NCBI GenBank assembly: GCA_018883485.1
Contig: VEQB01000001.1
Span: forward strand, 1 to 26,593
Direction: 5' to 3'
Source of the DNA: Bacteroidota bacterium
Lineage (GTDB): Bacteria > Bacteroidota > Bacteroidia > UKL13-3
Length of the DNA stretch: 26,593 bases
Position numbers and translations under genes: made by a program. Positions 16,673-21,645 of the stretch are shown piece by piece (positions within the stretch are counted from its first letter, which is position 1; each line of letters begins with the position of its first letter). The notes below the pieces were generated by a model. It did no database searches. It was not told the DNA's origin and saw only the letters and a program-made list of their open reading frames with translations.

Positions 16673-16830
16673 CATTTTTTATCCTTTTTGAGGATTTGCC
16701 TACCTAGTTTGTGTTAAAGTGCCTGAATATCAATATTGGCAATTGCCAAAATGCTGAGCTTATTTTTACGTTTAATGCTTTTAAAATTAAAATTAGTGGT
16801 TTATTTGAAATCTATTCTATGTTAAATTCT

Positions 16831-18105
16831 ATGCATCCTAAAATTCTTCTAACTTTACTTTGTATCCTCTCAGGTACATTTTCTTTAACTGCCCAACAAA
16901 ATAAATGTGGTAGCTACCTTAATAGAAGTGCCAACTGGCAAAAAAAACAAGGGGCCTTAAACCATAACCAAGAAGTAGAGAAAAGTTTACAACTTTACCT
17001 TGCTAGTAATGCGCATTCTTTACATAAAAAGAACAATGTTATTACTATTCCGGTGGTGGTGCATGTTATCTGGAACAATGCAACGCAAAACATTTCTGAT
17101 GCGCAAATACTTTCACAATTGGCAGTTCTGAATAAGGACTTTAGAAAAAGAAATACAGATACGCTAAACCCCAATCATCCATTTGCAAGCAAGGCTGCAG
17201 ATGTAGGTTTTGAGTTTTGTTTAGCCCAAAGAGATCCTTCTGGAAATGCAACTAATGGAATAACCAGAACACAAACCGCTATGCCTAGTTGGATTGAAAA
17301 GGATTGGGATAAAATCAAATTCACTAATGCCGGCGGTAAGAGCAATTGGGATCCTTATAAATATTTAAATATTTGGGTGGTAAGCTTGGCCGATGAAACC
17401 CTAGGATTTGCCACCTTTCCTGATGAACTAGCTGCCGACCCACAATTAGATGGGATAGTGATTAGGCATGAAGCCTTTGGAACTATTGGCACTGCTGGAT
17501 CTGGAGATTATAGTCAGAATGCCAAAGGCAGAACTGCCACGCACGAAATAGGCCATTGGCTTTATTTAAACCATATTTGGGGCGATGATTTTTGTGGCAA
17601 CGATTTTGTAAGCGATACCGAACCTGCAGAAGATGCAAATTATGATTGTCCAAGCTTTCCCTACAATGCCAATAATGCTTGCGGAGCGGGTGCAAACGGA
17701 GAAATGTATATGAATTTCTTAGATTATACAGATGACAATTGTATGAGTATATTTACCTCGGGTCAAGCCAATAGAATGAGAGCTAGCCTTAATAGTCTGC
17801 GCGCACAATTATTAAACTCCACTGCATGCAATCCTGTAAATGGCTTGAACCAAGAATTGATAGATCAGGTTATTGCTATTTATCCTAACCCAGCTCATGA
17901 TTTTGTTACGCTTAAAATGCCAAGCACTAAGCATAAAAATGCGCAAATAATGGTAGTAGATATTTTAGGAAGAACGGTTATAGAAATGAGCACATCTTCA
18001 GAACAAGAGCTTACTATAAATGTTGCTCAACTCAAGGCTGGAACCTATTTTGTAAGCTACAGAAGCGAAGAATTTCAATTTACTAAAAAACTTATTATTC
18101 AATAG
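16831..18105 (+). CDS. M43 (pappalysin/ulilysin-like) zinc metalloprotease, T9SS-secreted
   Basis: Signal peptide, Cys-switch-like KCG, IPVVVHVIW, LNIWV, zinc motif HEIGHWLYLNH, D.VSDTEP, Met-turn region MYMNFLDYTDD.CM..FT.GQ, type A CTD (IYPNPA...). Start is ATG 16819 or 16831, not the track start at 16711. Confidence 0.9.
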   Translation: MHPKILLTLLCILSGTFSLTAQQNKCGSYLNRSANWQKKQGALNHNQEVEKSLQLYLASNAHSLHKKNNVITIPVVVHVIWNNATQNISDAQILSQLAVLNKDFRKRNTDTLNPNHPFASKAADVGFEFCLAQRDPSGNATNGITRTQTAMPSWIEKDWDKIKFTNAGGKSNWDPYKYLNIWVVSLADETLGFATFPDELAADPQLDGIVIRHEAFGTIGTAGSGDYSQNAKGRTATHEIGHWLYLNHIWGDDFCGNDFVSDTEPAEDANYDCPSFPYNANNACGAGANGEMYMNFLDYTDDNCMSIFTSGQANRMRASLNSLRAQLLNSTACNPVNGLNQELIDQVIAIYPNPAHDFVTLKMPSTKHKNAQIMVVDILGRTVIEMSTSSEQELTINVAQLKAGTYFVSYRSEEFQFTKKLIIQ

Positions 18106-18110
18106 CCAAT

Positions 18111-18500
18111 ATGAGAATATCTTTAATTTGTATGCTTTGCATTTTGCTTAGTTTTAATGCTTGCAAAATGTTTACAAAGAAATCTAACAAGGAGAAGCAA
18201 GAGAAAAGTAGGGTTGAACCAATTGCGGCAACGTTTAGGGTTTCCTTTATTAGCAAAGGCTCTGGCACCGATATAAAGGCAAAGCAAACCTTTCGCAATT
18301 TTTTGGCTCAGAACGATAACCAAAAATACCCTTACCAAACATTGCCTTGGGGTAGGGAAGGAGAAATAGATTATTGTTTCGATTTTTCTAAACTTACCCA
18401 AGCAGAACAAGAGGAGTTTAAAACAAAGGTGAAGGAGTTATTAAAAGATTTTGAATTGGTGAGGTACAGGGAAAATGTAAGTTGCAACCCCAAGTCATAA
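18111..18500 (+). CDS. Small hypothetical lipoprotein
   Basis: Signal peptide ending FNAC (Cys18). Mature part has VSFISKGSG.D, PWGREGEIDYC and a C-terminal Cys. Begins 5 bp after the protease stop. Confidence 0.8.
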   Translation: MRISLICMLCILLSFNACKMFTKKSNKEKQEKSRVEPIAATFRVSFISKGSGTDIKAKQTFRNFLAQNDNQKYPYQTLPWGREGEIDYCFDFSKLTQAEQEEFKTKVKELLKDFELVRYRENVSCNPKS

Positions 18501-18529
18501 CCATGGATTGTTTATAGAAATTTTAACTT

Positions 18530-18545
18530 AGTGACTTTTGTCACA
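18530..18545. promoter_or_regulatory. CRP/FNR-like palindromic site
   Basis: AGTGA-CTTTTG-TCACA, 9 of 10 matches to TGTGA-N6-TCACA; also reads as the perfect inverted repeat GTGAC-N4-GTCAC. Confidence 0.55.
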
Positions 18546-18566
18546 ATTTGTTATTATTTTACTAGA

Positions 18567-18574
18567 TACCTTTG
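18567..18574 (+). promoter_or_regulatory. Bacteroidota -7 promoter element in front of the small ORF
   Basis: TACCTTTG is an exact TAnnTTTG match, 3 nt before ATG 18578. Confidence 0.65.
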
Positions 18575-18577
18575 ACC

Positions 18578-18658
18578 ATGCAATTTCCTAAGCCTATAAA
18601 ATTTATCTTAGTATGTTTACTTTGTGTAGGTTTGGCTTATTTGATTACTAAATGCTGA
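18578..18658 (+). CDS. Candidate 26-aa single-helix membrane peptide (not in the ORF track)
   Basis: MQFPKPIKFILVCLLCVGLAYLITKC: basic N-terminus plus a 16-residue uncharged hydrophobic run, flanked by a promoter element and a terminator. Confidence 0.55.
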   Translation: MQFPKPIKFILVCLLCVGLAYLITKC

Positions 18659-18711
18659 GTTCAACAGACCAGTTGCTAAGAAGTAATTCTTATCTATTTA
18701 AATTAAAAAGC

Positions 18712-18750
18712 CATTATTGGTATCCATCACCAATAATGCCTGTTTTTTTT
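18712..18750 (+). terminator. Intrinsic terminator after the small ORF
   Basis: CATTATTGGT-ATCCATC-ACCAATAATG, perfect 10-bp stem, followed by CCTG and a run of 8 T. Confidence 0.75.
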
Positions 18751-18810
18751 ATTAGCTTTAGCAAAATATTAAGAATAATGTAGCTTAATTTAGCTTCCAA
18801 ATATATAAGT

Positions 18811-21645
18811 ATGAAAATATACGCCACCATTTTTGCATTCACTTTTTGTTTTTTATTTGAGAAAGTAGCGGCTTTTAATCCTTCACTTAAGCCTAGCTTT
18901 ATAGAAAATGTGGGGCAGTTTCATAACCAGAATGGAAACTCGGTTAATAATTTAAAGTTTGTTTTACAAAGTAAGGGCCTGTTGGTTCAATTAAAAACCA
19001 CTGGCATTAGCTATGAGCTAAAGGAAAAAGGTAAGATAAGAAGGGTAGATTTGGAGTTTGTTAATGCAAATATTGGAATTAAGATTTATGCCAGTAATAA
19101 GAATCCAGGCATTTTGCAGTATTTAAGTAAGCAAGACCCTACAAAGTCTTATAGTGCGAGCACTTTTCAGAAAGTTGTTTATGAAAATGTTTTCAATGGT
19201 ATAGATTTAGAATGCTTCAGTGGAGAGGGTGAGACTGCTTTTAAATACAATTTTATAGTTCATCCTGGGGCAAATCCTGCCAATATTCAATTGGTAGCCA
19301 AAGGAGCCAATTCTTGTAAAACCAATAGCAATGGTGAGTTAATTATAATGGCTGGCAAAGAAGCCATTAAAGAGAGAATACCAGAGAGTTATTTATTAAG
19401 TTCTGGAGAGTCAGAGAAAAAAGAAGTAAAGGTCAATTATGTTGTTAAGAAAAATAGAATAGGCTTTGAATTGGAGGCTTATGATTATACCAAAACCTTA
19501 GTAATTGATCCTTTGGTTTGGAGCACGTATTATGGAGGCTCTGGTGCAGAACAGCTCTTTGATATGCAATCGGACCAAGATAGTAATATCTATATAGTTG
19601 GCTCTACTTCTTCTCCCAACATTGCCACCACAGGTGCCCATCAGATTTCTTTAGCTGGAAGTCAGGATGTTTTTATGGCAAAATTTACAAAGAATGGGAT
19701 ATTGGTTTGGGCAACTTATTATGGAGGTTCAGGAGCTGATTTTTGTAGTGGTTTCCGTATAAATGCCTCTGGAGAATTGATATTACATGGGCATTCAAAT
19801 TCAAGCACAGGAATTACGAGTTTAGGCAGCTATCAACCTAATTTGGTTCAGGTAAATTCCTATGATGCTTTTATTAGCGCCTTTGATACCAGTGGTATTT
19901 TTAAATGGGGTACTTATTTTGGTGGTTCAAATAACGACCAAGCATCAGGGATGACTATAGACCCATTAAATGGCCAAATCACTATTGTTGGACAAACCAG
20001 TTCAACTGATTTACCGCTGGCCTCCCTAGGATTTCAGCCTACAAATGCTGGATCAACGGATTATTATTTAGCTAGGTTCACCTCTAAGGGCTTTCCCATA
20101 TGGTCTACCTATTATGGCGGGCCTGCCGGAGATCAATATGCTAAAATTACAACAGATGCTAGTGGTAATATTTACATGGCCGGATATACGCCTTCGCAAA
20201 CTGGTTTGGCCTCTGCCAATGCTTATAAAACTATACAGGCACCTGGCTCAATGGATGGTATTTTTGCTATTTTTGATAGTACTGGAAATAGGCGTTATGC
20301 TACCTTCTTTGGAACTGCCTTGTTTGATCAGTTTTATGATATTACCACTGACGGTGCTGGCAAATTATTTATAGTTGGCGAAACCTTCTCTATAGATAGT
20401 ATTGCTACTCCTGGTGCTTATCAAACTGTGCACCAATCTCCCAATCAACGCGATGCAATGCTATTGTCTTTTGATACTTCTGGAGCATTGTTATGGTCAA
20501 CCTATTTTGGTGGAGAAAATCAGGATCTTTGCAGAGTTATCAGATACATTAATGATGGTCACCTCATTTTTGGAGGATATACTTATAGCAAAATTAAAAT
20601 AAGTTCTGTTGATGCTGTAAAGCCAGCAATGACAGATGCTATTGATGGTTTTTATGGCATAATGGGTCTTGATGGTGCCATTAAGTATGCTAGTTATTTT
20701 GGTGGAAACAACTTTGATTTATTGTCGGGTGTTTATGCTTGGTCTAGGTACAAGATTTTGCTTTCTGGTGTATCAATTTCAGATTCATTGTTAAGCACTC
20801 CTGGCGCCTATGTTGAGAAAAAACCAGGCTTGGGTTATGATTTTTTTCTTGCCCGAATTCATATAGATTTACCAGTGGCTGGGCCTTGTGATTTTAAGGC
20901 TGGCTTTACAATGAACCAAACTATACAGTGTAATAAAGGGAACTCTTTTGTATTTAAAGATACAACTACAGTTCCTGGTGTTAGCAGAATATGGGATTTT
21001 GACAACGGGATTTATGGTTCTAACCAAACAGAAAACATAAGTTTTGTTTTTGGCCCTAAGAATTATTTTGATGTAAAACTTACTTTAAGTAATGGTGTAT
21101 GCTCTAGTGAAGCAGTAAATAGAGTTTATATTATTGCTAATCCTGATGTTAAAACAATAACTGGAAGCACCAATGTTAGGCGATTAGAGTTGGCCACCTA
21201 TAGTGTTCCTTTTACCAATGGTTCTACTTACCAATGGATTTATGATAATGGCATTGGTACAAGCAGAAGTAATACCATAAATATACGATGGACAAGCAAA
21301 GGCACCACCAATTTAAAAGTGATAGAAACCAATAATGGGCCATGTGTGGGAGATACCATAAGTTTGCCTATTACCATTGATGCTGCCGTAGGTGAGGAAG
21401 AAATGTTTTTTAATGAAATTAGTGTTTATCCAAATCCACTAAGCTCAAAATTGTTTATTGATTTGCCGCAGGATTTACGAGCTCAAATAAAATTATATGA
21501 TAATTTAGGTAAGGAACAATTGAGTGAAAGCACAATGGGTAATACCCAAATAAACACCGAAAATTTAACACCAGGAATTTACTTTCTTTTGGTTCAAACC
21601 GAGAACAACCAAACCTATAGATTAAAAGTTGAAGTGAGGAGATAG
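18811..21645 (+). CDS. Large T9SS-secreted protein: N-terminal domain, seven SBBP beta-propeller repeats, PKD and PKD-like domains, CTD
   Basis: Signal peptide, FIENVGQ, FKYNFIVHPGANP..IQL, LVIDP, seven (W/Y)xT/S(Y/F)(Y/F)GG-type repeats, PKD-like WDFDNG and TYQWIY, CTD VYPNPL...LTPGIYFL...LKVEVRR. Confidence 0.88.
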   Translation: MKIYATIFAFTFCFLFEKVAAFNPSLKPSFIENVGQFHNQNGNSVNNLKFVLQSKGLLVQLKTTGISYELKEKGKIRRVDLEFVNANIGIKIYASNKNPGILQYLSKQDPTKSYSASTFQKVVYENVFNGIDLECFSGEGETAFKYNFIVHPGANPANIQLVAKGANSCKTNSNGELIIMAGKEAIKERIPESYLLSSGESEKKEVKVNYVVKKNRIGFELEAYDYTKTLVIDPLVWSTYYGGSGAEQLFDMQSDQDSNIYIVGSTSSPNIATTGAHQISLAGSQDVFMAKFTKNGILVWATYYGGSGADFCSGFRINASGELILHGHSNSSTGITSLGSYQPNLVQVNSYDAFISAFDTSGIFKWGTYFGGSNNDQASGMTIDPLNGQITIVGQTSSTDLPLASLGFQPTNAGSTDYYLARFTSKGFPIWSTYYGGPAGDQYAKITTDASGNIYMAGYTPSQTGLASANAYKTIQAPGSMDGIFAIFDSTGNRRYATFFGTALFDQFYDITTDGAGKLFIVGETFSIDSIATPGAYQTVHQSPNQRDAMLLSFDTSGALLWSTYFGGENQDLCRVIRYINDGHLIFGGYTYSKIKISSVDAVKPAMTDAIDGFYGIMGLDGAIKYASYFGGNNFDLLSGVYAWSRYKILLSGVSISDSLLSTPGAYVEKKPGLGYDFFLARIHIDLPVAGPCDFKAGFTMNQTIQCNKGNSFVFKDTTTVPGVSRIWDFDNGIYGSNQTENISFVFGPKNYFDVKLTLSNGVCSSEAVNRVYIIANPDVKTITGSTNVRRLELATYSVPFTNGSTYQWIYDNGIGTSRSNTINIRWTSKGTTNLKVIETNNGPCVGDTISLPITIDAAVGEEEMFFNEISVYPNPLSSKLFIDLPQDLRAQIKLYDNLGKEQLSESTMGNTQINTENLTPGIYFLLVQTENNQTYRLKVEVRR

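Follow-up and report, generated by a model that had tools for sequence, protein, structure and literature searches.

The window is the whole stretch of 26,593 nucleotides that was analysed, and the features described here lie in a 310-bp gap in its gene track. To the left of the gap are the gene for a T9SS-secreted M43 peptidase (16711–18105) and, directly after it, a 129-aa ORF (18111–18500); to the right is the gene for a DUF7948/SBBP/PKD T9SS protein (18811–21645). The 129-aa ORF, called a lipoprotein in the first-pass annotation, matched no Pfam family and gave only noise against NCBIfam.

Within the gap, a CRP-type inverted repeat, AGTGAC-TTTT-GTCACA, occupies 18530–18545 (centre, 18537.5). 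Its perfect arms, GTGAC and GTCAC, span 18531–18544 as read from the sequence, and in the form aGTGA-CTTTTG-TCACA it matches the consensus TGTGA-N6-TCACA at 9/10 positions. The repeat is followed on the plus strand by a match to the Bacteroidota sigma-A −7 box, TACCTTTG (18567–18574), and by a small ORF of 26 codons plus stop (18578–18658; ATG at 18578, TGA at 18656–18658) that would encode MQFPKPIKFILVCLLCVGLAYLITKC. A structure scan places an intrinsic plus-strand terminator at 18712–18750, in which a hairpin of 10 pairs with a 7-nt loop (18712–18738) is followed by CCTG and T8. The terminator appears to be bidirectional, with an A5 run upstream and an 11-pair minus-strand terminator also called by the scan. 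Finally, a −7-like box, TATATTTG, lies on the minus strand at 18798–18805. The first-pass annotation had combined these elements into a stand-alone transcription unit for a three-cysteine membrane peptide, and the palindrome, the −7 box, the ATG and its ORF, the hairpin with its T8 tail and the minus-strand box were all recovered where it had placed them.

Neither the palindrome nor the −7 motif is significant by itself. GTGAC-N4-GTCAC occurs exactly once in the 2.84-Mb assembly to which the window belongs (G000), where about one occurrence is expected from the base composition by our own estimate, and TAnnTTTG occurs 44 times in the window compared with 45 ± 6 times in shuffled sequences. The set of elements nevertheless stands above chance, because relatives show the elements in the same order and at the same spacing.

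A DNA search of congeners revealed the arrangement from which the window elements appear to derive. The genome G011 was 86% identical over window positions 18531–18653, from the palindrome through the ORF, and G003 and G006 matched over the palindrome region in the same search. In G011, the ORF corresponds to a gene for a 31-aa peptide ending in …LITKLIQFFN, which is followed after 18 nt by a 69-aa gene of the family PF11127 (YgaP-like_TM, DUF2892; E = 3.5e-22) and then by a terminator and an orthologue of the DUF7948 gene seen in the window. The order in G003 is a Crp-family gene for 220 aa, the palindrome GGTGACCAATGTCACC, the box TACCTTTG, a homologous 35-aa ORF and DUF2892. DUF2892 is present in 17/25 genomes of the genus, and an N4 palindrome of the GTGAC or GTAAC type regularly lies upstream of it together with a −7 box, whether or not the small ORF is present. 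The −7 box is conserved in G011, G003, G068 and G070, in each case 3 nt before the ATG. Where the peptide gene is present it is closely packed against DUF2892 (gap of 8–40 nt), and many DUF2892 loci have a plain leader of about 45 nt instead of the peptide ORF. These comparisons indicate that the window elements are homologous to a conserved Bacteroidota module consisting of regulator, palindrome, −7 box, peptide, DUF2892 and terminator.

In relatives, a tRNA-Phe(GAA) gene adjoins the module (L002, 1181–1254; L004, 1292–1365; L003, 2306–2379). Its position in the window is taken by the M43 peptidase gene and the 129-aa ORF, and therefore the upstream flank has been rearranged as well.

The spacing within the module is tightly constrained. 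Among 48 distinct homologous sites, the palindrome centre lay 36.5 nt from the G of the −7 box in 23, 37.5 nt in 12 and 35.5 nt in 4, and the window shows the modal value of 36.5 nt. In the promoter maps of Flavobacterium, the −7 box occupies −12 to −5 and is separated by 4–5 nt from the start site (PMC6847099, PMC9723704), the G of the box being at −5 (PMC6847099). Since the G lies at −5 and the spacing is conserved, the operators are expected at −41.5 or −42.5, which is a class-II geometry, and the window palindrome is predicted to be centred at −41.5 from its start site. The proposal of a CRP-type operator at the class-II distance is supported: the operator is conserved, it lies at that predicted distance upstream of a Bacteroidota −7 promoter, and a Crp-family gene ends there in several relatives.

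The same promoters appear to leave little room for a 5′ leader. In 18 of the 30 cases with an exact −7 box, the peptide ATG follows the box after 3–5 nt, most often 4 nt, so that leaderless mRNAs are predicted; the gap in the clade of the window is 3 nt. The almost leaderless mRNA that had been suggested for the window is consistent with this, as an ATG 3 nt after the −7 box would fit a leaderless or nearly leaderless transcript. As a counterpoint, with the G at −5 the predicted start in the window falls on 18579, 1 nt inside the ATG. The leaderless reading of the window copy would therefore require initiation at A18578, on the assumption of a 3-nt gap instead of the usual 4–5 nt.

For the protein that reads the site, the relatives suggest a candidate. 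A same-strand Crp-family gene lies upstream in 38 of the collected loci, and in G003, G010 and G007 this gene ends at the palindrome; the stop codon of the G003 gene is inside it. Orthologues of this adjacent regulator (at least 60% identity) were found only in these three genomes. The G003 protein (220 aa; PF13545, PF00027 and PF00325) lacks a Cys cluster of the FNR type, and A-R-E-V-V-T-R is the sequence of its recognition helix. The oxygen-sensing FNR suggested earlier finds no counterpart in the regulators next to the site, which are without the Cys cluster. All further perfect sites in G003, G007 and G010 lie within genes, and so the adjacent regulator appears to be dedicated to a single promoter. 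The idea that the site might be shared by a set of genes, to be found by a genome scan for GTGAC-N4-GTCAC, likewise came to nothing, as the window site is the sole one in its genome. A regulon defined by the looser GTGAY-N4-RTCAC was also rejected, the extra sites in G003, G007 and G010 being intragenic and without promoters.

In the assembly of the window, which is 84% complete, no orthologue of the adjacent regulator was found, and the best match to the G003 regulator was a paralogue of about 30% identity. Two Crp-family proteins are encoded there, the FNR-like protein of C338 and this paralogue on contig C487. In G011, the FNR-like protein is the only Crp-family protein found, and the palindrome is perfect nonetheless (GTTAC-N4-GTAAC). 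Any assignment of a reader to sites that have lost the adjacent regulator is therefore tentative. The C338 type (L176, about 1213–1728; L175 in G011) is a conserved FNR-like regulator of 236 aa; its N-terminal part carries a Cys cluster, C-x2-C ... C, and its recognition helix is of the form E-T-V-I-R.

The C487 regulator (L006, 1–300 and 241–882, minus strand) has 213 aa and the helix SSRVVISRLLKQME. Its gene ends just before TGTAACAAATGTAACT and a −7-like CACCTTTG, which are followed by a permease-like gene that we take, from its N-terminus judged by eye, to belong to the TauE/SafE-type sulfite exporter family. The operator there, TGTAAC-N4-GTAACT, differs from that of the window at a core position. 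Regulator, operator and target are laid out as in the DUF2892 module, and this locus may be regarded as a sister module kept in the genome of the window. A code relating the recognition helix to the half-site (RE..R with GTGAC versus RV..SR or E..SR with GTAAC) was also considered and abandoned, as the adjacent regulators did not sort cleanly.

The alignment with G011 also shows what distinguishes the window copy from the intact module. The two sequences are colinear through the first base of codon 26 in the peptide gene (18653), after which about 215–230 nt are missing from the window, and homology resumes at 18669–18690 with the end of the G011 DUF2892 gene (CPVPKK*). This plus-strand remnant, which includes the stop codon TAA at 18684–18686, is identical to G011 at 20/22 nt, and none of 2000 shuffled sequences scored as high. 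The junction zone, where about 215 bp are absent relative to G011 in the pairwise alignment, corresponds to 18654–18668 on the plus strand. Peptide codons 1–25 match G011. Because the alignment breaks at codon 26 and resumes in the 3′ end of DUF2892, the Cys of codon 26 and the stop codon are products of the junction. By this comparison, a deletion is seen to have joined codon 25 of the peptide gene to the final codons of DUF2892 and thereby created the third Cys and the stop. The terminator follows the remnant stop by 25 nt in the window and the intact DUF2892 stop by 23 nt in G011; as the G011 terminator occupies the equivalent position after DUF2892, the hairpin is the operon's own terminator. 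DUF2892 (PF11127) itself had no match anywhere in the 84%-complete assembly; a copy of it, or of the regulator gene, may lie in the part of the genome that is not assembled.

These results revise several parts of the original description. The unit is not stand-alone in origin, since the ancestral unit is a two-gene operon of peptide and DUF2892 from which the window copy arose by a deletion of about 215 bp. The three-Cys character of the peptide does not hold, as only the CxxC pair is conserved and the third Cys marks the deletion junction. The terminator, in turn, does not simply belong to the protease genes upstream.

A misassembly was ruled out as the source of the deletion, because contigs from three other studies bridge it without a gap, including a 9.7-kb contig that is 3.7% divergent. 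The divergent haplotype carries five substitutions in the unit, namely C18544A at a core position of the operator, the peptide changes F3L and P6S, and two synonymous changes. These changes are compatible with relaxed constraint, in so far as such small numbers allow. Separately, positions 18609–18940 show 0 differences in 332 nt relative to this otherwise ~3.7%-divergent haplotype (runs X3 and X5), where about 12 would be expected. The invariant stretch includes the junction of the deletion, the terminator and the first part of the DUF7948 gene, and could have arisen if recombination was recent or if the deleted allele underwent a sweep.

Upstream of the palindrome, the plus-strand stretch 18503–18530 resembles the end of the regulator gene. 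The match to G003 starts at 18503, where the G003 sequence encodes the C-terminus ...QDGLFIEILLR*, and the window stretch would correspond to about nine last codons (HGLFIEILT*), in a frame that differs from that of the upstream 129-aa ORF. With about 28 nt of similarity, we assign it with moderate confidence as a 3′ remnant of the regulator gene. In G006 and G014 (L004, L014), which are without the adjacent regulator, a ATAGAAWTWTTTTA-like stretch that corresponds to the last codons of the regulator is kept just 5′ of the palindrome (~60 nt upstream). This stretch may either be a deletion remnant that arose repeatedly or belong to an extended operator or an UP-like element.

The peptide itself belongs to a family that extends far beyond the genus. 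In an alignment of five congeners, K..LVC..C is invariant. In the 13-sequence alignment A3, L-x-C-x-x-C is invariant and the K/R three residues before the Leu nearly so. The window peptide, which is placed in the family by alignments A2 and A3 and by the profile HMM (E = 4e-14), keeps the core K8-F-I-L-V-C13-L-L-C16. It ends in ...LITKC* where G011 has ...LITKLIQFFN, and has lost the C-terminal polar tail (I/L)(Q/E)xx. The family members have a median length of 31 aa and one hydrophobic helix, and in nearly all cases they occur as a single copy per genome in fixed synteny with DUF2892. The pairwise dN/dS values within the family are 0.09–0.52, which indicates, from codon substitution patterns, that the family is under purifying selection. 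The suggestion of a small membrane peptide ORF was supported both by its occurrence in relatives and by the codon-conservation test (dN/dS < 1).

A profile search of the order, which comprises a single family, added members from three more genera; in all of these, a palindrome and a −7 box precede the peptide gene and DUF2892 follows it directly. At the level of the class, the family was present in 46/401 sampled genomes and 30/199 genera, and DUF2892 followed the peptide gene in at least 21 of 29 inspected loci. Conversely, among the best 80 DUF2892 loci in GTDB species genomes, 50 had a family ORF within 260 nt upstream; the taxa of the paired loci include Chitinophagaceae, Sediminibacterium, Saprospiraceae, Flavobacteriales, Cytophagales and Gracilimonas. 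When 1.84 billion representatives were searched with the profile, 186 clusters were obtained at E ≤ 1e-3, mostly of 29–37 aa. All ten cluster members that were looked up were unnamed or 'hypothetical protein', and no Pfam or NCBIfam model matched four family peptides. These results indicate that the family is undescribed but widespread, a real gene family that annotation pipelines overlook.

Taken with the deletion, the comparisons suggest that 18503–18750 is probably a decayed remnant of a conserved, Crp-controlled peptide-DUF2892 operon of Bacteroidota, in which the palindrome would now be an orphan operator, with orthologous palindromes in relatives. Such a relic would no longer be under selection. 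A gene-decay product accounts for the otherwise empty 310-bp gap, and this reading is mostly deflationary for the window. Several features run counter to it: neither haplotype interrupts the truncated ORF with a stop, its 26 aa are not below the shortest natural family members (25–26 aa), and the operator, the −7 box and the terminator are intact, so that residual expression or some function of the relic is conceivable.

The same features favor a functional unit in which the 26-aa peptide is transcribed, inserted into the membrane and used alone, perhaps under a paralogous Crp-family protein; the fixation of the deleted allele in samples of at least three other studies and the presence of the C487 paralogue with its related operator point in the same direction. 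We nevertheless consider this unlikely. The partner gene that adjoins the peptide in most homologous loci is gone, as is the cognate regulator, the conserved (I/L)(Q/E) tail has been lost, one haplotype combines the core operator mutation with two non-synonymous changes among its five substitutions, and the operator next to the paralogue gene deviates at a core position.

A further explanation is that the ORF is a regulatory leader whose translation tunes DUF2892, for example by sensing Cys or thiols, with a functionless peptide product. The position directly 5′ of DUF2892 with short gaps, and the plain leader that takes its place in many other loci, would suit such an element, whereas the conservation of sequence, length, hydrophobic helix and invariant CxxC in at least 30 genera, at the dN/dS values given above, is typical of a functional membrane peptide. 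As no conserved attenuator structure was seen between the peptide gene and DUF2892 either, this explanation is very improbable. That the unit is an sRNA or a type I toxin-antitoxin pair with an antisense RNA from the minus strand, as its shortness, its strong hairpin terminator that also reads on the minus strand and the −7-like box at 18805–18798 had suggested, is exceedingly improbable, given that an Rfam scan of 17500–19500 at E ≤ 10 returned only sub-threshold noise, the RNA fold z-score is only −2.15 and dominated by the terminator, the substitutions among homologues follow the codon structure, the gene is single-copy and in fixed synteny with DUF2892 instead of mobile or multi-copy, and no antisense partner was found. 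The minus-strand TATATTTG was rejected as an antisense promoter, since the motif occurs at chance frequency (44 vs 45 expected), and is most likely a chance match; it lies within the stretch 18609–18940, which does not vary among the sampled haplotypes.

On the reading of the window as a relic, the intact form and its decay may be outlined as follows. We infer that a Crp-family dimer binds the GTGAC/GTAAC-N4 palindrome at about −41.5 and activates in the class-II manner, driving a sigma-A promoter whose −7 box lies 3–5 nt before the AUG. The product would be a leaderless or nearly leaderless bicistronic mRNA that is ended by the intrinsic terminator. Its first cistron would give a peptide of about 31 aa with a single helix, predicted to be N-in, and a CxxC near the cytoplasmic end of the helix; the second would give a two-helix DUF2892 (YgaP-like) membrane protein of about 68 aa with a Cys pair of its own in the conserved C-P...C motif. 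In the lineage of the window, the adjacent regulator gene would have been lost first, and the deletion of about 215 bp would then have joined codon 25 of the peptide gene to roughly the last ten codons of DUF2892, leaving the operator, the promoter, the truncated 26-aa ORF and the terminator.

The gene neighborhood gives some indication of the role of the intact module. A rhodanese-fused pyridine-nucleotide disulfide oxidoreductase (Pyr_redox_2 plus rhodanese) lies downstream in 16 loci, and in Limnovirga soli a thioredoxin gene follows DUF2892. In Azospira, DUF2892 is induced about 10-fold by H2S (PMC5358917); in Bradyrhizobium, a DUF2892 gene in an oxidoreductase-trxC operon is listed as NnrR-dependent (PMC6710368); and YgaP of E. 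coli is a membrane sulfurtransferase that forms dimers (PMC4730233). Because of the thioredoxin and rhodanese-disulfide reductase neighbors and the published induction of DUF2892, the most economical reading is that the intact module would serve under thiol, persulfide or sulfide stress and that the CxxC peptide would partner DUF2892 in it. A complex prediction for the G003 peptide and the G003 DUF2892 protein gave a score of 0.01 with low pLDDT, a result that speaks neither for nor against the pairing. The broadest version of this proposal holds that the phylum-wide leaderless K/R-x-x-L-V-C-x-x-C peptides are thiol- or metal-reactive subunits of a DUF2892 complex, under a dedicated Crp-family sensor and in response to sulfide or persulfide stress, and that the window copy is retained as a working stand-alone gene; we regard it, taken as a whole, as quite unlikely.

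The promoter of the module resembles the class II promoters of the CRP/FNR family, such as that of E. coli CRP at galP1 or those with FNR at −41.5, in the Crp-family HTH gene beside the site in relatives, the (T)GTGA-N6-TCAC(A) repeat, the predicted centre at −41.5 or −42.5 and the very tight spacing to the downstream element of the promoter. It differs in that the promoter is of the Bacteroidota TAnnTTTG −7 type and in that the regulator appears to have a single target instead of a regulon and has no FNR Cys cluster; in the window, moreover, the cognate regulator is missing.

In E. coli, YgaP combines a rhodanese and a DUF2892 domain and is encoded in the ygaVP operon, which is regulated by the ArsR-type protein YgaV. 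The second gene of the intact module likewise belongs to PF11127 (YgaP-like_TM), and the neighbors of the module are frequently rhodanese, thioredoxin and disulfide-reductase genes. In contrast to YgaP, the DUF2892 protein of the module stands alone at about 68 aa without a rhodanese domain, it is preceded by a CxxC mini-peptide that is absent in E. coli, and it would be controlled by a Crp-family protein; the window keeps only about 22 nt of the gene.

The small proteins CydX (with cytochrome bd), KdpF and AcrZ, which are about 30 aa long, have one hydrophobic helix, are encoded beside a membrane-protein gene and are routinely missed in annotation, offer a parallel, as the module peptide is also about 30 aa, has a single helix and adjoins a membrane-protein gene. 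It has no sequence relationship to them, and differs in its invariant intramembrane CxxC, its predicted leaderless position as the first gene and the putative nature of its association with DUF2892. With the type I toxins Hok, TisB and Ibs, the peptide shares a short hydrophobic sequence in an apparently empty intergenic gap. Unlike these toxins, it has no conserved antisense RNA and occurs as a single, vertically conserved copy in synteny with a partner gene over a phylum-level range; together with the missing Rfam match, this speaks against the type I toxin or sRNA that the first-pass annotation had considered.

The transferable discovery is the undescribed peptide family with its stereotyped promoter, which is of the Crp type and probably leaderless. 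It offers a handle on the function of stand-alone DUF2892 proteins, on one-target Crp-family regulators in Bacteroidota, and on leaderless translation in a phylum without Shine-Dalgarno sequences.

One genome, G090, has two peptide-DUF2892 cassettes (L046 on C102 and L065 on C122). In one of them, the peptide ORF carries an in-frame TAA after the start of the CxxC helix while DUF2892 is intact, which makes it another case of small-gene decay.
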